A stretch of 49,759 nt of DNA from IMG/VR virus record IMGVR_UViG_3300020161_000762, positions 1 to 49,759 of that record. One strand, 5' to 3'. Below are positions 10,419 through 32,836 of the stretch, piece by piece (the first letter of the stretch is position 1; every line of letters starts with the position of its first letter). The notes below the pieces were generated by a model, which saw only the letters and a program-made list of their open reading frames with translations, was not told the origin of the DNA and searched no databases. The position numbers were made by a program, and so were the translations under genes. This stretch comes from a virus (lineage: Duplodnaviria; Caudoviricetes).

Positions 10419-10859
10419 TTAGTCAACGAACGCCTTCATGCGCTGGGCGTGATCAAAGCTGCGGATCTTGGAGATGATCTCGCGCGCCTGTATGGTGATG
10501 AACACCACCGGTGCGCCCTCGTCCTCCGGGTTGACCACGAATCGGTCTCCGCCGTACTTGATCGTCCTCACAAGATCTCCGACGTTACACCAGGGACCCT
10601 CAGGCCATGGCTCTAACGTGTCCGGGCTCTTGTACGCCAGGGATCCGATCTGCTTGACCTTCGCAACCGTCTCGTTAAACCTGAGGGTTGCCTTGGTCTC
10701 ATCAACCAGAATGATCCCGCCCTTGCTCGTTGTCTTCTCGCGTCGTAGCTGCACCAGTACACGGTCGCCCGCGACGTCAATGCCAGGGTCTATGTCTGGG
10801 AAGCACTCCGCCTCCGTGCGTAGATCTGGCTCATCTCTCTGTACCACGTCAAATGCCAT
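10419..10859 (-). CDS. groES: GroES/Cpn10-like co-chaperonin
   Basis: GDRVLVQ...TTSKGGIIL mobile loop and VGDLV...KYGG motifs. Confidence 0.8.
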   Translation of the reverse strand: MAFDVVQRDEPDLRTEAECFPDIDPGIDVAGDRVLVQLRREKTTSKGGIILVDETKATLRFNETVAKVKQIGSLAYKSPDTLEPWPEGPWCNVGDLVRTIKYGGDRFVVNPEDEGAPVVFITIQAREIISKIRSFDHAQRMKAFVD

Positions 10860-15629: not shown

Positions 15630-17066
15630 CTACTGGGCGTATGGGTTGACCCTGGATCTCTTGTCGTCCGCGTACCCATAGTCCCTGGGCGGCAGGGGGT
15701 CGAGCTGCACCCATCCAGAGTCTCGGAGCACCCGGAGCGCCTGGGAGAGGCTGTCCACGTAGTCATCGTGACCGCCAGACTCCGGGAACGAGCACACCTG
15801 GCGCAGGAATCTCTTCGCCCACGCCGCAAACTCGCCAGGATTCTCTGGGTCCTCGGGTATGTACACCTTGCCCTTCGCGATCAGCGGCGCGACAATGTTC
15901 AGGCGCTGCACCTTGTCCGCCTTGCCAGGGTTGTACGCCCTCACCGGTATGTTGGCGCCCTGCAACTCTTGCACCAGGGAGATACCAGCGGACTTGTCCT
16001 CCATCAAAATAAGGTCCGCCTTCCTTCCCTTCGCAAATGTCTGGTCCGAGCCGTACACCACCTCCTTGAAATCCGCGACGACCTTCTTTCGCAGCTCGGG
16101 GTACGAGAGGTGCGTGTCCCACGCGTCCAGTAGCATCAGGCACGTCCCAGCGTCAGGTCTCTCAAACACGCCCCACACCTCGCAAGCGGTCGGGTCGTTG
16201 TGCGTCTTCTCCGAGGTCGCCGGGTCGTAGCTCGCAATCACGTACTCCAGGGTTGGGGTCTCCTGCTTGGCGGGCCACATCTTGAACCACTTCCGCTTGA
16301 TGATGCCGGCGTCCTCAGGGTTAAGAATCTCCCCGTAGATCTCCTGCTTACCAAGGTCGGTGCCCTCGTAGGTCTCCAACTGCTTGAAGAAGGTGGAGGA
16401 CAGGTTCGCCTTGTTGTCGTAGGATGAGGCGTTCACCACGTACACCTCGCCACCGATCTTGCCCTCGTTCAAATCAACGATCAGCTCCTTGGGCTTGGGG
16501 GTGGTGGTGACAATCTGCTGGACCCGGGGTATGGCCGGGTCTTTCAAACGCATTGTGAACTGCACCTGGTCGTACGCGTCGTCGATGTACTCGAACGCGC
16601 ACAGCTCGTCAAACCACCCGCCATGGAACTGCTTACCCCGGTACCGCTCTGGCTCGGATCCTGGTATGCCCTGGATGATAGATCCGTTGATCAGGGTGAT
16701 CTCCAGCATCTGCTTGTTGTAGTCCTTGATCAGCGAGGCGGGGATGATGTGCAACAGGCCCGAGTCCCCCTCGAAGCACGTCGCCCGGATGTCGTTCGAG
16801 GTCGGAGCGGTCACCAACCACCGAGTGTTAGGGTACTTCCACGCCCGGATACCAATCCAGTGGCTCGCGGTGTGGGTTTTACCCGATCCGCGGCCTGCCA
16901 ACATCAAAAACGTGTCATAGTCGCCGTCCTCGGGCTCTCTTTGGTGCGGGAGCGCCTCAATCTCCCACCGAACCTGCCACAGCGCCGCCTCCAGCTCGTG
17001 CTTGGGCCAGTGTTTGTTGTTTTTTGCAAAGTTTGCAAGTATTTTCTCTTGTTCCGGTGTCAGCAT
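15630..17066 (-). CDS. terL: Terminase large subunit
   Basis: Walker A AGRGSGKT, Walker B WFDE, TTTPK motif, nuclease SYDPA...HDDYVDSLSQA. Confidence 0.95.
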   Translation of the reverse strand: MLTPEQEKILANFAKNNKHWPKHELEAALWQVRWEIEALPHQREPEDGDYDTFLMLAGRGSGKTHTASHWIGIRAWKYPNTRWLVTAPTSNDIRATCFEGDSGLLHIIPASLIKDYNKQMLEITLINGSIIQGIPGSEPERYRGKQFHGGWFDELCAFEYIDDAYDQVQFTMRLKDPAIPRVQQIVTTTPKPKELIVDLNEGKIGGEVYVVNASSYDNKANLSSTFFKQLETYEGTDLGKQEIYGEILNPEDAGIIKRKWFKMWPAKQETPTLEYVIASYDPATSEKTHNDPTACEVWGVFERPDAGTCLMLLDAWDTHLSYPELRKKVVADFKEVVYGSDQTFAKGRKADLILMEDKSAGISLVQELQGANIPVRAYNPGKADKVQRLNIVAPLIAKGKVYIPEDPENPGEFAAWAKRFLRQVCSFPESGGHDDYVDSLSQALRVLRDSGWVQLDPLPPRDYGYADDKRSRVNPYAQ

Positions 17067-18031
17067 ACCGCCAAAAACCCCTCCTCAACCAAAAATGGGC
17101 GCTCGGTTAGCACGTGAGCGCACTGCTTGGGTGTTATTTTGTTAATTTTTGACAAAAACCGGTACAAATTGCTAGGTTTTTCCCTGTTTTTGTAAAATTC
17201 CAGGGTAAAGTACCCCCTGGTCTCGTGCTTTAGCAGCCTAGACCGGTACCCGAGCGACTCGACCAGCCCTTGAAGCTTGCGGATTCGCACCCAGGAGTGC
17301 TCCACTATCTCGACGAGGTCCTTTTTTGCGCCGTAGCCGTCCAAGAACCCGTCGAGCAGCTGCTCCCTTTGCTCTGGTGACGCGCTCATGTAGCTAAACG
17401 GTACGGAATCCGGCGCGCCCTCGCCATAAACCGAGAAGCTGGTAGCCAGCGGGGGCCGGAACTCCATGAGCGTGTCCCCGTTTTTGTGCCTGCGGGTGAC
17501 GATCGAGTAACCGTGCTCCCTCGACCTGGCCCTCATCCGCTTGATGTCGTGCTTCTCACGTAGCCAGTGACGCTTGGTCGGGCTGAGCGTAGCCAGGAAC
17601 ACACCCACAACGTAGGGCGGGACGGGAAGGTCAACCCACGAGTACTTGACCGGCAGCGTTGTTGGTAGTGAGTACTCACGTCTGCCATCCTCCCTAGCCA
17701 AGGATTCACGAGATAACTCATGAACGCTCTTCTTCTTGAGCGGGCGCTTCATGCTCTTCCTCGCGCCCTTCTTGCCACGGTTCTTCGCCCAGCTCCCGCG
17801 CCTGTCCCTCCAGGTCTTGTCCTGTAGCTCAAAGCTCATGTGCCGGTCGCCGCGCACGGCCACCCCATCGTGGAAGCTAGCCTCGTAGCACTCAGCGGGT
17901 ATGTAGAGCTGCACCCCCTTCACCGGCTGCGGGTTACCCTCGACGTCGAAGACCACGTGCTTCGTGGTGAGAGCGTGCGCTCGCACCCAGCCCTCGGTGG
18001 TAGGCACCGGGGTGTCAGAGGTCACGGCCAC
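17060..18031 (-). CDS. Free-standing Hint (intein-like) protein with degenerate LAGLIDADG-type insert
   Basis: N-terminal AVTSDTPVPTTEGW...VFDVEGNP..V (intein block A-like); LPVPPYVVGVFL and REQLLDGFLDGYG (endonuclease blocks); C-terminal FLVEEGFLAVC-stop. Confidence 0.7.
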   Translation of the reverse strand: MAVTSDTPVPTTEGWVRAHALTTKHVVFDVEGNPQPVKGVQLYIPAECYEASFHDGVAVRGDRHMSFELQDKTWRDRRGSWAKNRGKKGARKSMKRPLKKKSVHELSRESLAREDGRREYSLPTTLPVKYSWVDLPVPPYVVGVFLATLSPTKRHWLREKHDIKRMRARSREHGYSIVTRRHKNGDTLMEFRPPLATSFSVYGEGAPDSVPFSYMSASPEQREQLLDGFLDGYGAKKDLVEIVEHSWVRIRKLQGLVESLGYRSRLLKHETRGYFTLEFYKNREKPSNLYRFLSKINKITPKQCAHVLTERPFLVEEGFLAVC

Positions 18032-18215
18032 GCTTCTTCCTCTTCCTGTTGCGGTCCATCTTGGTGGCGTGCGCCGAGCTGCTAGGGGACAGCCAGATCT
18101 CCTTGAACGTCCCGTCCGCCCTTAGCACCTTCGTGTACGCAAAGAAAACAAACCCGTCCTCCCGCGTGTCGCCACGGTGGAACCTTTCGCCTGTGATTGG
18201 GTTGACTCGTCTCAT
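18015..18215 (-). CDS. Small hypothetical protein, first gene of the leftward arm
   Basis: 66 aa basic ORF preceded by the promoter-like motif. Confidence 0.55.
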   Translation of the reverse strand: MRRVNPITGERFHRGDTREDGFVFFAYTKVLRADGTFKEIWLSPSSSAHATKMDRNRKRKKRGRDL

Positions 18216-18221
18216 CTCTAT

Positions 18222-18235
18222 ACAACTAATACAAA
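18222..18235 (-). promoter_or_regulatory. Putative phage promoter motif TTTGTATTAGTTGT
   Basis: Consensus match 6 nt before the ATG at 18215. Confidence 0.5.
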
Positions 18236-18256
18236 CTTCATTGAAATCCTATGCAA

Positions 18257-18335
18257 CCGGCAAAAATTGCCGGTTTACCAGGTTGGTCGCACTTTGCCGA
18301 CTCATTCCAGGGTCGCCGGCAAAAATTGCCGGTTT
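18257..18335. repeat. Two copies of palindromic CCGGCAAAAATTGCCGGTTT (18257-18276, 18316-18335); variant GCGGCAAAATTTGCCGC at 18536-18552
   Basis: Read directly from the sequence. Confidence 0.85.
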
Positions 18336-18336
18336 G

Positions 18337-18459
18337 CTGCACAGGTTGCACAGGTCGCACAGGTCTAAGTCCACCTACTCCTTTTCTTTTTTTACTCATG
18401 AAGAAAAAAGAGAATAGGTAAGTGGGTTTAGACCTGTGCGACCTGTGCAACCTGTGCAG
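18337..18459. repeat. 123-bp palindromic element, copy 1 (origin-like)
   Basis: Perfect 32-bp inverted arms CTGCACAGGTTGCACAGGTCGCACAGGTCTAA (3x GCACAGGT) around an A/T-rich core. Confidence 0.9.
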
Positions 18460-18463
18460 GAAG

Positions 18464-18480
18464 TGCACCAAAGTAGTGCA
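18464..18480. promoter_or_regulatory. NtrC-like box TGCACCAAAGTAGTGCA
   Basis: Matches the 17-bp TGCAC(C/T)A-N3-T(G/A)GTGCA consensus. Confidence 0.45.
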
Positions 18481-18694
18481 CGTTTCGGATCTGTCTCTAT
18501 ACCTATTAGCTGATTTTTTGCAAAAATTTTTGCGGGCGGCAAAATTTGCCGCAATAGTAGAGCGATCGCTGGGTTGAGTGGGGCCCCCGCCCCCACCCCC
18601 CTGGTACCCGCGAAGGGGTGACCGACATGCTCGAAAGGGACCCTGCCAATATGCCTGTATGCGCATATAAGCATGTTGCGGTGCACAACGCCCC

Positions 18695-18877
18695 AGTGAG
18701 CGCACACTAACATGCCAATAGCGCGGAGTGAGCGCTTGCTAACATGGTGCGGTGCACCACCCCCAGTGAGCGCACGCTAACATATTGCACTGCAACAACT
18801 GGGCAATGTATGCGTGTATCCGCATATAAGCATATAGGCATATGGGCGCGCGGGCTAAGTAAGTGAGCGCTCACATT
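18695..18877. repeat. Four AGTGAGCGC(A/T)Y(A/G)C operator-like repeats (SlmA-site / TetR-like)
   Basis: 18695-18711, 18727-18743, 18765-18781 and 18859-18877; the last contains the perfect palindrome GTGAGCGCTCAC. Confidence 0.6.
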
Positions 18878-18891
18878 GGCAATAACCCCTA

Positions 18892-18951
18892 GCAAAAATC
18901 GTGCCAGCGAGCCAATTGGCACGCTAATTGCCCTAGCAAGAATCGTGCCAG
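18892..18951. promoter_or_regulatory. Three consensus sigma54 (-24/-12) elements
   Basis: CTGGCACGATTTTTGC (-, 18892-18907), TTGGCACGCTAATTGC (+, 18916-18931), CTGGCACGATTCTTGC (-, 18936-18951). Confidence 0.7.
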
Positions 18952-19000
18952 CGCGCGCAAATTCCCACAATGCGAAACGCTCAGATCGGCGCGTAGGCAG

Positions 19001-19009
19001 TTATCCACA
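19001..19009 (+). promoter_or_regulatory. Perfect DnaA box TTATCCACA
   Basis: Exact R1-type consensus, single copy. Confidence 0.5.
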
Positions 19010-19129
19010 GGGGGGCCAGGGGGTAGGTAGCCACCTGAGCACGAGGGCCACTGAGGCGCGATGCGCGCGCGACAGAGCCATCGCGGGCAGGGCGTGATTA
19101 GTGCACCAGTGCCCGGAGCGGCGCCCATA

Positions 19130-19246
19130 TTTCGCATGGTGAAAAGTAGGGGTAAAAAACCAATAGGGTGATACACAACACATGCGAGCCACCCCGTTTC
19201 GCATGGTGAAAAGTAGGGGTAAAAAACCAATAGAGTGATACACAAC
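19130..19246 (+). repeat. Two 50-bp direct repeats containing AAAAGTAGGGGTAAAAAACCAA (putative early promoter module)
   Basis: 19130-19179 and 19197-19246 differ by one base; the core recurs at 20326-20347 and 22229-22250. Confidence 0.8.
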
Positions 19247-19260
19247 CAAAGGAAAACACC

Positions 19261-19485
19261 ATGGACGACAATTTAGGAATGGCTGGTAAATACAACGTCT
19301 ACCGTTGCGAAGACAATGCCGGGTTTTATTTCGAGCACGAACAGTATGGCGACGAGCGCTCTGTCCGGGTCAACATTGACCCAGCGACCAAGCAGGCCTT
19401 TGACTACGAGGGCATGTACGAGGTCCCGGCGACGTGTTTGGAGTGGCTCCGCGCCAACGGCGTGGACGTCTCAGACGTCGAATAA
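19261..19485 (+). CDS. Early hypothetical protein
   Basis: 74 aa, AAGGA RBS. Confidence 0.65.
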   Translation: MDDNLGMAGKYNVYRCEDNAGFYFEHEQYGDERSVRVNIDPATKQAFDYEGMYEVPATCLEWLRANGVDVSDVE

Positions 19486-19488
19486 TCA

Positions 19489-19538
19489 GCACTACTGATG
19501 AGGCCTGAGTGGCCGAAACCCCTCCGGGGGTCTAGTGC
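19489..19538 (+). ncRNA. Type I hammerhead ribozyme 1
   Basis: Stem I GCACUA/UAGUGC, CUGAUGA, stem II GGCC-ugagu-GGCC, GAAA, stem III CCCC-uccg-GGGG, GUC; predicted cut after 19532. Confidence 0.9.
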
Positions 19539-19559
19539 AAACAACCAAGGAGAAACAGC

Positions 19560-19781
19560 ATGACAGACTTCGCACAAAAAACAATCGACGGATTTAACTG
19601 CGAATTCACGGACGAGTGGGGCACGACGTCCGTGATGATTCAAAAGGGGCGATTCTGTTCGTCGCTGGACTTCGCCGAGATGCACGGCGAGATCCTCGAC
19701 GACTTCAACGGCACGGCCATACCAGTGAGCAGTCACAGCCTCGCAAGGATTCAGCGCTGGGCCGATTCGCTGGGGTATTGA
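19560..19781 (+). CDS. Early hypothetical protein
   Basis: 73 aa, AAGGAG RBS. Confidence 0.65.
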   Translation: MTDFAQKTIDGFNCEFTDEWGTTSVMIQKGRFCSSLDFAEMHGEILDDFNGTAIPVSSHSLARIQRWADSLGY

Positions 19782-19784
19782 TCA

Positions 19785-19834
19785 GCACTACTGACGAGGC
19801 CTGAGTGGCCGAAACCCCTCCGGGGGTCTAGTGC
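19785..19834 (+). ncRNA. Type I hammerhead ribozyme 2
   Basis: Same as copy 1 except CUGACGA; predicted cut after 19828. Confidence 0.9.
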
Positions 19835-20256: not shown

Positions 20257-20309
20257 GCACATCTGATGATGGGGTGAGTCCCCGAAAACCGCGCGAGCGG
20301 TTCATGTGC
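20257..20309 (+). ncRNA. Type I hammerhead ribozyme 3 (divergent)
   Basis: Stem I GCACAU/AUGUGC, CUGAUGA(U), GGGG-ugagu-CCCC, GAAA, ACCGC-gcga-GCGGU, UUC; predicted cut after 20303. Confidence 0.8.
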
Positions 20310-20313
20310 AGAA

Positions 20314-20347
20314 TTTCACATAATGAAAAGTAGGGGTAAAAAACCAA
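20314..20347 (+). promoter_or_regulatory. Third copy of the early promoter module
   Basis: TTTCACATAATGAAAAGTAGGGGTAAAAAACCAA upstream of the ORF at 20379. Confidence 0.65.
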
Positions 20348-23174: not shown

Positions 23175-23315
23175 ATGCTAACCGTCTTCGGAATCTTGCT
23201 CTCGCTGGTCTCGTTCCATGCGGCCGACGTGTTCGGCTTGTCATCCTCATCCGTTGGTGGTATGCTCCTCGGGGTTACCATGATCGGGATGGGTGTGTAC
23301 TTTGGCAAACGATAA
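23175..23315 (+). CDS. Small membrane protein
   Basis: 46 aa with two hydrophobic segments, GGAGG RBS; below the ORF-track cutoff. Confidence 0.45.
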   Translation: MLTVFGILLSLVSFHAADVFGLSSSSVGGMLLGVTMIGMGVYFGKR

Positions 23316-23874
23316 ATCGGCAATATCAGGCTACGTTCGTGGCCTGTACTCTTACCAACCACTACCCCTCGACGAGGAGAGGAAACTGTCCGGCATGATA
23401 CAGGCAGGTGACCGCCCCTCGCTCGAGCGGCTCGTGAAGCACAACCTCCGGTTCGTCATATCCGTCGTGAAGACCACCCCCGAGTGGCGCTACAGCGTGG
23501 TGCCACACGAGGACCTGATCGCGATGGGTAACGAGGCGCTACTCAGAGCGGCGAGGAAGTGGGTCCCCAAGAACAACGCGCGCTTCGCAACGTACGCGAA
23601 GCCATTCATCATACGCGGGGTTCGGCGGGCGATTGACAACGAGTGGGGGCTGATCCGTCTGCCCGTCAACATCTCCGAGGAGATACGACGGGTGAAGTAC
23701 GCGGAGAGGTCCCTGATGCAACGACTCGGGCGCGACCCGATCAACGAAGAGATCGCGCACGAGGCAAAGACCCACCCGGACAGGGTGGTGAAACTAAACA
23801 ACCTGATCGCCCGGGGGCCAATATCCCTCGAGTCGTTCAGCCCTGAAAACTTTCAAGAGGAAGACGAAGAATGA
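23293..23874 (+). CDS. Sigma70-family (RpoD/RpoS-like) factor with regions 1.2-3 only
   Basis: LVKHNLRFVISV, DLIAMGNEALLRA, RFATYA, IRLPV, LGRDP..EEIA, PISLE, then stop; no region 4. Start may be TTG at 23302. Confidence 0.85.
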   Translation: MCTLANDKSAISGYVRGLYSYQPLPLDEERKLSGMIQAGDRPSLERLVKHNLRFVISVVKTTPEWRYSVVPHEDLIAMGNEALLRAARKWVPKNNARFATYAKPFIIRGVRRAIDNEWGLIRLPVNISEEIRRVKYAERSLMQRLGRDPINEEIAHEAKTHPDRVVKLNNLIARGPISLESFSPENFQEEDEE

Positions 23875-24673: not shown

Positions 24674-24680
24674 TATGTCC

Positions 24681-24803
24681 CTGCACAGGTTGCACAGGTC
24701 GCACAGGTCTAAGTGCACTCACTTATTCTTTTTTTCTTCTTCTGATAAAATAAAAGAAGAGGTAAGTGGGTTTAGACCTGTGCGACCTGTGCAACCTGTG
24801 CAG
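24681..24803. repeat. 123-bp palindromic element, copy 2 (probable replication origin)
   Basis: Same 32-bp arms as 18337-18459 with a diverged A/T core; 18 bp upstream of the primase-helicase. Confidence 0.9.
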
Positions 24804-24821
24804 CAAATTTCATAATGTGGA

Positions 24822-27128
24822 ATGACCATGGAAAAACCAACAAAAATTGATGTGGACTTCGAGCGGATACCGTTCGAGCTCAAAAAGATCCCGCGGTGGG
24901 TTATGTGGCGATTTGTGGAGATTGGCGAGGGTGAGAGCCGTCGCTGGTCCAAACTGCCCGTGCAGGCGAACATGCACGCCGCGAGCAGCACCAACCCCGG
25001 CACTTGGACAGACTTCCTGAGCGCGCAGAACGCGTACCAAACCGGCAAGTTCGACGGTGTGGGGTTCGTGTTCGACGGATCTGACGGGCTGGTGGGTGTC
25101 GACCTGGACGATTGCTACGCCGGGGGGCAGTTTACGAGCCCCGAGGCGGCCCGCATAGCCTCGGAGGTAGAGGGGTACATGGAGGTCTCTCCGAGCGGCA
25201 CAGGGGTCAAGATATTCACGCTGGCGGCCATCCAATCCGCGCACGTAGACCACGACAAGGGGCTGGAGATCTACCCACGCGGGCGCTACTTTACGGTGAC
25301 GGGCCAACACATCGGCGGTGCGATACCAACGTCCCCAATTGATCTGTCCCCATTTATCCCGGAGAGATCCGTTCGCATGACGGGTGACGCGTTCGCGGAC
25401 TACACACCGCCCGTGGCGGAGTACGACGTCGCACGGGTGGAGTCCGACCTGCTCGCGCACCTCGACGCTAACTGCGGGTACTCGGAGTGGCTACGCGTGG
25501 GCATGGCGCTCCACCACCAGTTCAACGGCGACGTGGAGGCGTGCGAGGCGTGGGATCGTTGGTCCGCGACCACCGAGGGCAACTACCACCCCGGCGAGTG
25601 CGCCCGGAAGTGGGACAGTTTTACCAAGGGCAAGGGCGCGACTCTGCGCTCGATCATATTCGAGGTGAACCAAGTAAAGAAGAGCGAGGCGCTCGCCCGG
25701 GGTGAGATCGTGCTCGACCCCGCGCCTCTGAACCACGCGGCGGAGTATCTCGAGTCGGAGCACACCAACGAGGAGGGCACCACGCTCGTGCACTACGCGG
25801 CGGAGTTCTTCAAGTACACGGGCAACTGCTACGAGCCCGTCGAGGACGCCACGGTGCGATCTAAGATGTACGCGTTCTTAAACAAGTGCAACAAGACGGA
25901 CCGCCGGGGCAACCTGATACCGTTCGCGCCCACGCCACCACTGGTGAGCGCCGCGATCGACGCGTTGCAGGCCACGGTGCACCTGCCACAGAGTGCGCAC
26001 TCGCACCCGCCGGTGTGGCTCGAGGGGTTCGGCAAGAGCAAGCCCGAGGCGTCGAAGCTGATCAGCCTGAAGAACGGGCTCTTCCACCTCGAGGACTCGG
26101 TGCTACTGCCGCACACGCTCGGGTTCTTCACGCTGAACAGCCTGCCGTTCGAGTACGACCCGACGGCGAGCTGCCCGGTGTGGGAGGGATTCCTCGAGCA
26201 ATTGTGGGGGCACGACAGTGAGTCGGTGGACACCTTGCAGGAGATCTTCGGGTACATCCTGTCGGGCGAGACCGACCAGCAGAAGTTCTTCAACGTCATC
26301 GGCCCTCGCCGTAGTGGCAAGGGGACGATCAACAAGGTGCTCGTGGACCTGCTAGGACAGCACAACACGGTAGCGCCGGAATTAGGAGAGTTATGTGACA
26401 CGTTCGGACTACAGCCATGGCTTGGCAAACTACTTGCATCGTTTACGGACGCGCGTGCGCCGGAGAGGAACCGTAGCGCTGTTGTTTCTCAGCTTCTGCG
26501 TATTGTTGGTGGTGATACCGTAACCGTGAACCGCAAGAACCGCGAGGCGTGGAACGGGTACCTGCCAACTCGTATCGTGATCTACTCGAACGAGGTGATG
26601 CAGTTAACCGAGAACAGCAACGCGCTCACCGGCCGGATGATCGTGCTCAAGATGACTAACTCGTTCTACGGCAGGGAGGACACGCAACTCTCCACCAAGC
26701 TGAAGGCCGAGCTCTCGGGCATATTCAACTGGGGCATGGAGGGCCTGCGCCGTCGCAAGGCGCGCGGTGGCAAGTTCGTGCAGCCCGCGTCGGGCACGGA
26801 GCTCTTGCACGTGATGGAGGAGCTCTCCAATCCGCTAGGCACGTTCATCGAGGACACGCTGGTACTTGACGACAAGGCGAGCATCAGCAAGGACGACCTG
26901 TACCATGTCTTCAAGCGGTGGGCTACGGCTCGCGGGATACACCCGGGCACGGACCTGACATTCAAGCGCCAGTTCTTGGCGGCGACGAGTGACAAGCCGA
27001 TACGGATCACGCAGACGAGCAACGGCGAGGCACGGGTCAGGGTGTACCAAGGGATACGCTTCCAGGAGCGCGCCCAGCAGTACGTGGACAGCGTTAACAA
27101 CTCTCTTATGAGCGAGGACTTTTTATGA
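24822..27128 (+). CDS. Primase-helicase (prim-pol, PriCT-2, D5/P4-like SF3 helicase)
   Basis: GVDLDDC, EVSPSGTG, YFTVTG; YSEWLRVGMALH (PriCT-2); Walker A GPRRSGKGT. Confidence 0.9.
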   Translation: MTMEKPTKIDVDFERIPFELKKIPRWVMWRFVEIGEGESRRWSKLPVQANMHAASSTNPGTWTDFLSAQNAYQTGKFDGVGFVFDGSDGLVGVDLDDCYAGGQFTSPEAARIASEVEGYMEVSPSGTGVKIFTLAAIQSAHVDHDKGLEIYPRGRYFTVTGQHIGGAIPTSPIDLSPFIPERSVRMTGDAFADYTPPVAEYDVARVESDLLAHLDANCGYSEWLRVGMALHHQFNGDVEACEAWDRWSATTEGNYHPGECARKWDSFTKGKGATLRSIIFEVNQVKKSEALARGEIVLDPAPLNHAAEYLESEHTNEEGTTLVHYAAEFFKYTGNCYEPVEDATVRSKMYAFLNKCNKTDRRGNLIPFAPTPPLVSAAIDALQATVHLPQSAHSHPPVWLEGFGKSKPEASKLISLKNGLFHLEDSVLLPHTLGFFTLNSLPFEYDPTASCPVWEGFLEQLWGHDSESVDTLQEIFGYILSGETDQQKFFNVIGPRRSGKGTINKVLVDLLGQHNTVAPELGELCDTFGLQPWLGKLLASFTDARAPERNRSAVVSQLLRIVGGDTVTVNRKNREAWNGYLPTRIVIYSNEVMQLTENSNALTGRMIVLKMTNSFYGREDTQLSTKLKAELSGIFNWGMEGLRRRKARGGKFVQPASGTELLHVMEELSNPLGTFIEDTLVLDDKASISKDDLYHVFKRWATARGIHPGTDLTFKRQFLAATSDKPIRITQTSNGEARVRVYQGIRFQERAQQYVDSVNNSLMSEDFL

Positions 27129-27499
27129 TAATAGGAATAGGCTCAGACATTGTGAGCATTGACCACGTGGGCAACTGCTACAAGAAACAATCCTGGGCGT
27201 TCGTGCACAGGATCCTTGGCAAGCTGGAGCTCGACTACTTCGCGCAGATTTCCGACAACCGCGCCATGTCGGTGAGCTACTTGGCTCGCCGGTTCGCTGC
27301 GAAGGAGGCCACGCTGAAGGCGTTGGGGATAGGCATGAGCTCAGACCTAGACCTGAGAGACGTTCAGATACTGAACGACTTCAAGGGCAAGCCCGAGCTT
27401 CACATCGAAAAGCCCGGCTTGTTCCCGCACCGCGCGCACGTTACAATCACGGACAATCACCGCGACGTTGTCGCGTTCGTCCTTATCGAATCAAACTAA
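27125..27499 (+). CDS. acpS: Holo-ACP synthase (4'-phosphopantetheinyl transferase)
   Basis: MIIGIGSDIV, LARRFAAKEATLKALGIG, GKPEL motifs. Confidence 0.9.
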   Translation: MIIGIGSDIVSIDHVGNCYKKQSWAFVHRILGKLELDYFAQISDNRAMSVSYLARRFAAKEATLKALGIGMSSDLDLRDVQILNDFKGKPELHIEKPGLFPHRAHVTITDNHRDVVAFVLIESN

Positions 27500-31431: not shown

Positions 31432-31712
31432 TGGACAGGGTACAACTATTTAATGAGATTGTGCGAGCGTCCCGAGCGATCGGGGTGCCCAGCACGGACG
31501 CGACCAGCCTGGACCAGAAGCTCTCGGAGGTAAACCTTGACAGCCTTGACACGTTGTTAGTAAGCATTTACTATTGTGATGTGTACGGGATTTCCGAAGA
31601 GCAGGCCAAGAAGTTGCAACCAAAGACGCTCGGGGAGATCTATGAGTTTATCGATCAGAACAAGACAAGAGAGCCTAAGACCATGGAGGAGGCGCTGAAG
31701 AAGATACGATGA
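31428..31712 (+). CDS. Acyl carrier protein
   Basis: NLDSLD phosphopantetheine attachment motif, helical pattern ending TLGEIYEFI; adjacent to a ketosynthase. Confidence 0.75.
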   Translation: MMDRVQLFNEIVRASRAIGVPSTDATSLDQKLSEVNLDSLDTLLVSIYYCDVYGISEEQAKKLQPKTLGEIYEFIDQNKTREPKTMEEALKKIR

Positions 31713-32836
31713 GGATATACCTGACAAAGTACAGCACGCTCAGCACCGAGGCGCTTCACCTGGTGGAGGACCACGCGTACCCCCAGCGAGCGCACTTCTT
31801 CCCGGAGCTGTTCAAGGCCACAAAGTCTGGGCTGTTCTGCACCCCGCAGCGCGCCATAGAGCGCGTGGTCACCCCGGAGATGGTGAGCTACATCCGCGGC
31901 AACCCGGTGCCCGGCAAGACCGGGTTCATACTAGCCGGTGGCTCACAGTCTTGGAACTCCGGCGGCGTGCCCGTGGACGAGCGGTACTTTGACAACTCCC
32001 TGGCGTACGCGTACAAGATGGAGATCCTCACCGTCACGAACATCTTCGGGTCTCGCATCGCCTCGCAGATCGGCGCCACGGATTACACCGCGACAGACGC
32101 GAGCACGTGCGCGTCTAGCCTGAAGGTATTGATGGACGTGCGCCACCTGATCAACCTGTACGGCTTCGACCGGGTGGTGGTGCTAGGCTTTGAGGACACC
32201 ATAAAGAACCAGCTCCTCACGTTTTTTGGGTCGTCCATGACCACGCTAACCAAGAAGGACGACGACCTCGGAGCGAAGCCGTCCTCATTCGACAAAGTCA
32301 ACCGTGGCTTTTACCTGGGCCAGGGTGCGGTGCTCGCCGTGTTCGAGTCGGACAGGGCTCTCAAGGACAGCCCCAACGCAGAGCTCCTGGGGGCCTACAC
32401 GGCCTCGGAGCACAACGCCAACCCCATAGGCCAGCTCGAGGACGGGCAGGGCTACACGAGGGCCATACTGGGCGCTCTGGGGGATCGCAGCCCGTCGGAG
32501 GTGGCGCTGATCAAGACGCACGGCACCGGCACCGGCATGAACAACAAGTCGGAGCGAGCCGCGATCGAGGGTCTCTTCGATGAGTTCATCGCGACATCGT
32601 ACAAGCCACGCATCGGGCACACCATGGGCGCGAGCGGGTTGTTGGAGACCTGTCTGCTACTGGACAGCATAAAAAAGGGAGAAATACCAGAAATAAAGAA
32701 CAGAACAGAGCGAGACACACGATTCATATCAGAGCCCCAACCCGTTCCGAGGGGGCTCATGCTCTCGCTCGCGGCCGGCATGGGGAATGTTTTTTCGGCT
32801 GCACTATTTAATTATCATGATTATCACAAAATATAA
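31709..32836 (+). CDS. Beta-ketoacyl-ACP synthase (FabB/FabF-like)
   Basis: TCASSL (Cys), THGTGT (His), K..IGHTMGASG (His), GF.LGQGA, GMGN. Confidence 0.9.
   Translation: MRIYLTKYSTLSTEALHLVEDHAYPQRAHFFPELFKATKSGLFCTPQRAIERVVTPEMVSYIRGNPVPGKTGFILAGGSQSWNSGGVPVDERYFDNSLAYAYKMEILTVTNIFGSRIASQIGATDYTATDASTCASSLKVLMDVRHLINLYGFDRVVVLGFEDTIKNQLLTFFGSSMTTLTKKDDDLGAKPSSFDKVNRGFYLGQGAVLAVFESDRALKDSPNAELLGAYTASEHNANPIGQLEDGQGYTRAILGALGDRSPSEVALIKTHGTGTGMNNKSERAAIEGLFDEFIATSYKPRIGHTMGASGLLETCLLLDSIKKGEIPEIKNRTERDTRFISEPQPVPRGLMLSLAAGMGNVFSAALFNYHDYHKI

Follow-up and report, generated by a model that had tools for sequence, protein, structure and literature searches.

A bracketed array of predicted host-protein sites, variable among relatives, at a likely genome end of an uncultured tailed phage

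The virus record IMGVR_UViG_3300020161_000762 is a single contig of 49,759 nucleotides from a tailed phage (Caudoviricetes), the whole of which is called the window here; a gene-free stretch at 18255–19250 lies where its leftward and rightward gene blocks diverge. The right part of this stretch (about 18650–19075) carries an array of predicted binding sites for several unrelated host proteins, which very probably lies in a direct terminal repeat of the phage DNA, and whose position is constant among relatives while its contents change. An earlier, sequence-only reading had described the whole stretch as a single landing pad for host DNA-binding proteins. That description holds for the right part; the stretch is not one uniform pad, and its left part (18255–18560) contains a 130-bp origin-like inverted repeat that had been missed. 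Near-complete and complete relatives of the phage measure 62–68 kb, from which it is estimated that about 12–19 kb of its genome lies outside the window.

All motifs listed by the earlier reading were found where it had placed them, and they are genuine and far above chance. Their counts exceed those in nearly all of 2000 dinucleotide shuffles (0–15 shuffles reach them), although these counts are optimistic, since the patterns were picked after the sequence had been read, and the test in relatives described below is the stronger one. The three sigma54 elements TGGCAC-N5-TTGC, located at 18892 (−), 18917 (+), and 18936 (−), are the only ones in the window, and no shuffle contains three or more; the latter two face each other, with their −12 boxes 4 bp apart. 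Neither are the four SlmA-type 12-mers with at most two mismatches (18696, 18728, 18766, and 18863) matched in number by any shuffle. The PhaR-type sites (18674, 18745, and 18783) are equaled in two shuffles, with position 2 of their pattern having been relaxed after the third site was seen. The NtrC-like palindrome at 18464 and the perfect DnaA box at 19001, each without a second copy in the window, are reached in 4 and 15 shuffles, respectively, the two TT(T/C)C-N7-GAAA palindromes (19130 and 19197) in two, and the three CGGCAA-N3-TTGCCG palindromes in none. The SlmA, PhaR, and DnaA labels were checked in papers, whereas those of sigma54, NtrC, Fur, LexA, CRP, and IclR follow consensus sequences that we take to be the accepted ones.

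The array is bracketed by two signals conserved in the phage family. One of them, a GC-rich landmark, forms its sharp left boundary and is a candidate terminase or left-end signal; the other sets the right limit of the sigma54, SlmA, and PhaR sites. A profile hidden Markov model of the landmark matches 122 of 188 TerL-anchored loci, many of the non-matching loci being too short. Among these 122 loci, 92 extend at least 650 bp rightwards, and dereplication left 43 distinct arrays, in each of which the region to the right of the landmark was compared with the region to its left and with a coding control of equal length. Sigma54 sites number 106 on the right, none on the left, and one in the controls. 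The corresponding figures are 100, 2, and 3 for SlmA, 70, 3, and 4 for PhaR, 36, 7, and 0 for NtrC, 19, 6, and 0 for DnaA, 12, 8, and 0 for Fur, and 35, 6, and 0 for IclR-like sites. The median number of scored sites is 9 per array (range 0–17) and 0 per control (maximum 2). The second signal is present in 37 of the 43 arrays and in none of the 43 controls, and in the arrays that have it 236 of the 243 sigma54, SlmA, and PhaR sites fall between it and the landmark, the distance between the two signals ranging from 191 to 479 bp. An additional element, ATGC-N8-GCAT, occurs in 10 of the relatives' arrays and in none of the coding controls. A hairpin role was considered for both bracketing signals and rejected (fold z of 0.06 for the landmark and −0.34 for the second signal).

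The composition of the array varies strongly from one relative to another. Sigma54 sites are found in 28 of the 43 arrays, SlmA sites in 26, PhaR sites in 21, NtrC sites in 17, DnaA boxes in 12, and Fur sites in 9; some arrays include sigma54 sites only, some SlmA sites only, and some NtrC plus PhaR sites. The TerL tree is largely poorly resolved, and turnover was judged on its well-supported sister pairs. Thus, array L152 has nine sigma54 sites and no SlmA site, whereas its sister L166 has two and four; the sisters L313 and L179 also differ. Four arrays (L283, L314, L275, and L209) use other repeated words with no assigned binder, for example GAGGCAAGGTG, ATATAACCACAC, GATCA-N2-TGATC, and AGGG-N4-CCCT, which are candidate sites of further host proteins. 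No obvious array was seen by eye in the stretches read of two distant TerL relatives, RLK (44%) and MW202545 (52%); an annotated terminal repeat of 2940 bp in RLK contains the terminase genes.

The layout of the sigma54 sites is unusual for promoters. Leftward sites, pointing towards TerL, number 65 and rightward ones 41, and 31 facing pairs are present in the 43 arrays, with −12 boxes separated by 3–7 bp. NtrC sites are uncoupled from them, as eight arrays contain both classes and nine contain NtrC alone. While the −24/−12 consensus is present, the sites lack a suitable orientation to a gene, space for a start site, and an enhancer coupled to them, and by their layout these elements appear to be binding sites and not functioning promoters. 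The mixed orientation, the closely facing pairs, and the uncoupled NtrC sites bear out the earlier judgment that ordinary promoter control is unlikely.

A short segment of doubled depth, flanked by DNA of single depth, is the expected signature of a direct terminal repeat. Such a segment was found over the array in the contigs of all four metagenome runs analyzed between 15500 and 21500 (X1–X4), where the values are contig depths and not copy numbers; X1–X3 belong to one study (two studies overall), and X1 and X2 may be the source of the window itself. The depth is 13.7 (X1) and 19.7 (X2) over 18431–19159, 5.92 (X3) over 18440–19159, and 137.8 (X4) over 18658–19164, that is, 1.65, 1.66, 1.70, and 2.08 times that of the flanks, and it returns to single at 19204–19529 and 17473–18362. 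For this reason, the array very probably lies in a direct terminal repeat, and the location at a genome end, which the earlier reading had suggested, is likely. The edges of the repeat would fall between about 18340 and 18660 on the left and between about 19130 and 19230 on the right; a left edge near 18650 predicts a ratio of 1.70 for X1–X3, in agreement with the data. No repeated 31-mer starting inside the doubled pieces was found within the window, the array is single in three complete circularised relatives (G043, G044, and G045), and no second strain was seen in the flanks in X1. Published mapping of termini relies on peaks of read starts (PMC3896407, available part). Contig ends were uninformative as a map of the terminus, being scattered over the array or located in poly-A runs, and a scan with the landmark pattern for this purpose gave no matches. 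In one relative (G042), sigma54 arrays lie at both contig ends, which looks like assembly overlap in a tandem repeat and was not counted as evidence.

Similar arrangements are present in phages outside the family. The tandem SlmA-site pattern occurs in an estimated 220 viral stretches, and 19 of the 80 examined with their flanks belong to the family of the window phage. In 43 dereplicated loci outside it, TerL lies directly downstream of the tandem sites in 27 (68 of 115 open reading frames (ORFs) were scanned), and these 27 loci span three other TerL groups with 18, 5, and 4 members. The facing sigma54 pair was found in 88 viral stretches as compared to 7 matches in 596 Gb of prokaryote genomes, all 7 on contigs shorter than 19 kb from assembled bins. 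By protein match, 35 of the 88 loci belong to the window phage's family; of 30 other loci scanned, 4 carry the landmark, and a terminase gene is directly downstream in 10 of the remaining 26. Phage Sepoy (L204, 1520–1780), which is T5-like, has LexA, two DnaA, and several Fur-type sites at the inner edge of its terminal repeat, in the injection-stop region, and in the T5-like Vibrio phage D419 (L206, 3390–4185) sigma54, DnaA, LexA, and CRP-type sites adjoin the DNA-transfer gene. Pakpunavirus Kat (L205, 3002–3190) has a sigma54 triplet that includes a facing pair and borders the small early genes; a conserved triplet is also present in 134 records of Pseudomonas phages (Pakpunaviruses).

The SlmA and PhaR labels of the earlier reading agree with published motifs (PMC3020112, PMC4423959, and PMC3206438); statements on these and other papers refer to the accessible parts of each. 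According to Tonthat et al., the SlmA site reads GTGAGTACTCAC, where position 3 may be either purine and position 6 either pyrimidine (PMC3020112). The window contains one perfect and three imperfect predicted sites with the 12-bp core GTRAGYRCTYAC, and the segment 18857–18874 is identical to the first 18 nucleotides of the 24-nucleotide consensus oligonucleotide of the E. coli SlmA-binding site (SBS; PMC4423959). Flanking positions outside the search pattern, taken from about 100 sites in relatives, reconstitute the E. coli consensus (PMC4423959), so that the 12-bp core and the 20-bp flanks are both shared (PMC3020112 and PMC4423959). Chromosomal SBSs are dispersed, whereas the phage arrays pack 2–7 SlmA-type sites into 300 bp. 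The PhaR-type box corresponds to the sequence TG[N]TGC[N]3GCAA that was footprinted for PhbF of Herbaspirillum (PMC3206438), and a related motif is given in PMC10888616.

The host is likely a betaproteobacterium, the sole link being binning, which can mislead: three relatives with 80% TerL identity fall in one bin labeled as an uncultured betaproteobacterium, which encodes SlmA, PhaR, and RpoN above family cut-offs. In the candidate host family, 20 of 41 genomes have an SlmA above the cut-off, whose DNA-binding end closely resembles that of solved SlmA. No enrichment of SlmA sites over a reversed control was found in the candidate host bin or in these 41 genomes, E. coli not having been run as a positive control. 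In the candidate host bin (G001), no PhaR-type box was seen in the 3.3 kb surrounding phaR. A scan of prokaryote genomes with the perfect 20-bp SBS gave 32 scattered matches, many in Actinobacteria, without a clue to the host.

The left part of the gene-free stretch differs from the array in its contents. The origin-like inverted repeat has a second copy at 24680–24807, upstream of the primase-helicase gene, and it is likewise duplicated in the relatives G043 and G044, with iterons that match within a genome and differ between the relatives. Such twin copies with genome-own iterons suggest a phage-protein origin and not a host site; the repeat may function as an origin and is probably read by a phage protein rather than a host protein. 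The CGGCAA-N3-TTGCCG palindromes, to which the earlier reading had given a RegA/PrrA label, lie left of the landmark and recur there in just 7 of the 43 relatives, every one with TerL at least 85% identical; the label found no support. The TTTC-N7-GAAA palindromes at the opposite end turned out to belong to a 50-bp promoter-like repeat, which is also present at 20314 and at about 22230, ahead of early genes. The copies at 19130–19246 may act as promoters; a sigma70 scan of the window did not detect the repeats. The coordinates of all these elements and of the adjoining genes are listed in Table 1.

Table 1. Elements of the gene-free stretch and its neighboring genes (window coordinates).
Feature	Position	Strand	Basis or remark
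Terminase large subunit (TerL)	15630–17066	−	PHROG terminase families, E 2e-31
Free-standing Hint/LAGLIDADG-like protein	17060–18031	−	Atlas feature matches 0.90–0.96 to LAGLIDADG_3/Hom_end clusters
66-amino-acid ORF, no assigned function	18015–18215	−	Final gene before the non-coding region
Three CGGCAA-N3-TTGCCG palindromes, no assigned binder	18258–18551		18258, 18317, and 18537
Origin-like inverted repeat, 130 bp	18333–18462		Three 9-bp iterons per arm flanking an AT-rich core
NtrC-like palindrome TGCAC-N7-GTGCA	18464–18480		Presumed consensus; left of the landmark here
GC-rich landmark, family-conserved	18561–18652	+	Profile hidden Markov model
Putative direct terminal repeat	18600–19200		Contig depth, X1–X4
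Two 24-bp ATGC-N8-GCAT elements, no assigned binder	18651–18833		Copies at 18651 and 18810
Three PhaR/PhbF-type boxes TGNTGC-N3-GCA	18674–18794		Motif from PMC3206438
Four SlmA-type sites	18696–18874		1, 1, and 2 mismatches at 18696, 18728, and 18766; 18863 perfect
Three sigma54 −24/−12 elements	18892–18950	−, +, −	Sequence; presumed consensus
IclR-like palindrome, tentative	18963–18977		Sequence; presumed label
Perfect DnaA box TTATCCACA	19001–19009	+	Consensus as in bioRxiv 10.1101/866236
Second family-conserved signal	19061–19073	+	Right limit of sigma54, SlmA, and PhaR sites
Two 50-bp promoter-like repeats	19130–19246	+	Copies at 19130 and 19197, each starting with TTTC-N7-GAAA
First small early gene	19261–19485	+	Without family match

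The leftward gene block comprises TerL, portal, and capsid genes, whereas the rightward block, starting at 19261, comprises small early genes, a sigma-70-like factor, primase-helicase, exonuclease, ribonucleotide reductase, and DNA polymerase. Among cultured phages, TerL is matched best, at 44%, in the Caulobacter phage RW group. A blastn search with 18000–19500 against 50,697 phage records gave no match, and shorter queries gave short motif-level matches or none. The 22 metagenome runs listed as containing the gene-free region are mostly freshwater, aquatic, or sediment. Neither a sheath nor a convincing tape-measure gene was found among the window proteins scanned, which suggests a short tail. 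The Hint/LAGLIDADG-like protein occupies the slot usual for the small terminase. Its homologues, with 22–92% identity, adjoin TerL in the relatives checked, directly upstream, and diverge faster than TerL; a Pfam search with this protein gave no matches. It may be a domesticated homing endonuclease that acts as a small terminase or an end-nicking enzyme.

Several other features of the window were noted. The phage-encoded sigma-70-like factor (23293–23874, +) has regions 2 and 3 only. The replication module includes fatty-acid-type genes for a phosphopantetheinyl transferase (27125–27499) and a beta-ketoacyl synthase (31709–32836, +), and a GroES-like gene is located at 10419–10859. The five E. 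coli-type Chi octamers (6957, 6981, 25088, 35755, and 45119) are all on the + strand, with none on the − strand, which may be codon bias. Three hammerhead-ribozyme-like elements (19489–19538, 19785–19834, and 20257–20309, +) lie between early genes, each directly before a ribosome-binding site, with a CUGANGA...GAAA core and a three-stem fold (z from −2.3 to −2.8). The pattern matches 0–6 times in the same region of relatives, and Rfam at the gathering score reported no match in the window. A strain variant in run X4 is missing a 296-bp gene cassette (19499–19796) between two hammerhead repeats, which suggests its loss by recombination between them.

Among described systems, the closest counterpart is the injection-stop region of T5, which lies in the terminal repeat, is non-coding, and contains eight ordered DnaA boxes, at which membrane-bound DnaA was proposed to halt entry (Davison, bioRxiv 10.1101/866236). 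The window array resembles this region, or Repeat Region 3, as a repeat- and palindrome-rich non-coding segment of a probable terminal repeat with a DnaA box, only one in this case, and at least one in 12 of the 43 relatives' arrays. In T5, however, the repeat is 10 kb long and carries pre-early genes, its DnaA boxes are fixed in number and spacing, and the roughly eight paired boxes lie in the IRC/IRD repeats behind A1/A2, about 8% into the genome (10.1101/866236). The putative repeat in the window, unlike it, is about 0.55–0.9 kb long, gene-free, and variable in the kind and number of its sites, and the array is likely at the genome end and not internal. The paired-box layout is not present in the window, and A1/A2 were not among the proteins scanned, with some small ORFs falling outside the scan. 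The words Fur, LexA, sigma, and RpoN are absent from the main text of 10.1101/866236, to which the supplements may add further sites. In ICP1, a gene-free gap also has a packaging terminus near a proposed replication origin, but this phage has a headful pac site, and no host-factor array is named in the accessible text (bioRxiv 10.1101/639039).

The ends of other phages are served by other means. The left end of T7 has a short non-coding leader that enters first, followed by promoters for the host polymerase, and linear ends, which must survive host nucleases, are protected by proteins such as T4 gp2 and Mu Gam. Whereas these systems use promoters or phage proteins, the likely end of the window phage itself carries predicted sites for many host proteins. 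End-binding phage proteins are covered in PMC12407980, and the available part of the review PMC13330545 makes no mention of an entry ratchet. Multi-factor host-site arrays at phage ends were not found in titles and abstract openings, most subscription journals being outside the scope of the search. What this analysis newly adds is the depth-based evidence for a terminal repeat, the pair of signals enclosing the array, the exchange of classes over 43 relatives, and the link to terminase genes in other lineages.

We lean, tentatively and short of even confidence, towards a generic coat of host proteins that would anchor and shield the genome ends at entry. The motifs of the array would recruit whichever tight-binding host proteins are available, so as to coat the naked ends during entry. 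If the DNA is packaged leftwards from the repeat, as TerL is transcribed, the left repeat copy and the early genes behind it would be packed last and hence, as the last-packed DNA of tailed phages enters first, would be the first to arrive. Bulky bound proteins (sigma54–RNA polymerase closed complexes, SlmA, PhaR, NtrC, Fur, and DnaA) could then form a clamp or ratchet against back-sliding, holding until RNA polymerase at the 19130–19246 promoters takes over, and could hinder end-loading nucleases before phage proteins exist. The right copy would acquire its coat as it arrives, and any titration of host proteins in the course of replication would be a by-product. Since the identity of the proteins would matter little under such a coat, their classes could be swapped, and the coat would therefore account for the fixed end position, the free swapping, and the non-transcribing layout together. 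For T5, it has been pointed out that the entering end meets RecBCD while phage proteins are still absent (10.1101/866236). The doubled depth, the restriction of the sites to the interval between the two signals, their turnover, and the terminase genes beside comparable sites in other lineages speak for the coat, as do the LexA, DnaA, and Fur-type sites of Sepoy. Lambda-type Gam, the one protein family tested, was not found in any of five near-complete relatives, which was counted in favor of the coat.

A number of observations weigh against this view. RecBCD can evict bound proteins, and the location beside the terminase cut suits a role in packaging equally well. The array may be up to 300 bp from the genome tip, as the depth of X1 is already 1.7-fold at 18339–18457 and that of X4 about 129 at 18515–18688, so that the left edge of the repeat may be further left. 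In many records, the Pakpunavirus triplet is about 12–13 kb away from the end of the sequence; therefore, not every such cluster is terminal. A single array of the 43 (L283) lacks all seven scored classes and carries other tandem repeats, and in three of the four window SlmA sites a strongly preferred base is missing (PMC3020112).

The coat and the roles in packaging, titration, and transcription are not mutually exclusive. An aid to packaging or end formation, in which host proteins would act late as a roadblock or bend and stall the motor or repeat-duplicating synthesis so that the cut falls at the landmark, is rather unlikely in our estimate, even though it covers the same facts nearly as well. 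The sharp edge of the array at the landmark and its place directly upstream of terminase genes in four TerL groups would suit this role, a roadblock would tolerate the swapping of classes, and there are precedents in IHF at lambda cos and in RNA polymerase pausing at the concatemer junction of T7. The known accessory factors are nevertheless specific and precisely spaced, unlike the variable signal distance and site number seen here. Repeat Region 3 of T5, which straddles the end of the terminal repeat (10.1101/866236), and the ICP1 pac site, located inside an ORF-less gap (10.1101/639039), point again towards packaging. The decoy, or sponge, which the earlier reading had offered together with a protein-coated genome end, is unlikely as the whole explanation: the end location was supported by depth, whereas a pure sponge is a poorer fit than a role tied to the end, the position being fixed while the classes are swapped. 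Under this reading, many replicated copies would draw SlmA away from the nucleoid, block division, titrate DnaA, and capture sigma54 polymerase and PhaR. The fit of the flanks to the full SlmA consensus and the presence of SlmA in about half of the candidate host family's genomes (20/41) are in its favor, and a precedent exists, as two SBSs on a multicopy plasmid can block Z rings when SlmA is raised 4-fold (PMC4117426). Yet a sponge has no need of a terminal position, SlmA sites are missing from 17 of the 43 arrays and sigma54 sites from 15, and the lack of enrichment of SlmA sites in the candidate host bin and family leaves nucleoid occlusion there unproven.

Transcription control appears quite improbable. 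Nitrogen, carbon-storage, iron, or cell-cycle state might tune the early promoters, sigma54 might drive late genes leftwards, or the array might insulate early from late genes; it does lie at the early/late divergence, most sigma54 sites (65/106) point to TerL, and the TTTC-N7-GAAA sites overlap promoter-like repeats. Against this, the −12 boxes of the facing pairs are so close that either start site would lie within the opposite element, such a layout is rare in prokaryote genomes, NtrC and sigma54 sites are not coupled, and regulatory inputs would not swap freely. Very improbable, finally, is that the motifs are sites of phage proteins or neutral tandem duplications and that the depth step is due to another strain or to a second copy that went unseen. 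Arrays do show tandem duplication, part of the genome is outside the window, and the left part is probably read by a phage protein, but unrelated phages share several published or textbook host consensus sequences that are unrelated to one another, no second strain was seen in the X1 flanks, and the array is single in complete circularised relatives.

How phage DNA completes entry and survives before phage proteins exist is a long-standing open question, and the T5 injection stop has been a candidate sequence for decades without a proven partner. The probable terminal repeat described here carries named, mutable predicted sites for well-studied proteins that are swapped among relatives, which makes the question directly testable. 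If a sponge were the true role, host takeover would be achieved by DNA alone, including a possible block of division via SlmA. The arrays may mark genome termini and hint at the hosts of uncultured phages. We can speculate further, with considerable doubt, that several unrelated phage lineages have convergently lined their genome ends with interchangeable high-affinity host-protein sites, through which host regulators would grab, pull in, and shield incoming DNA without any phage gene product. If so, such convergent end-coating would be a natural, sequence-encoded form of the protein-binding ratchet proposed for DNA entry, with the T5 injection stop as a special case.

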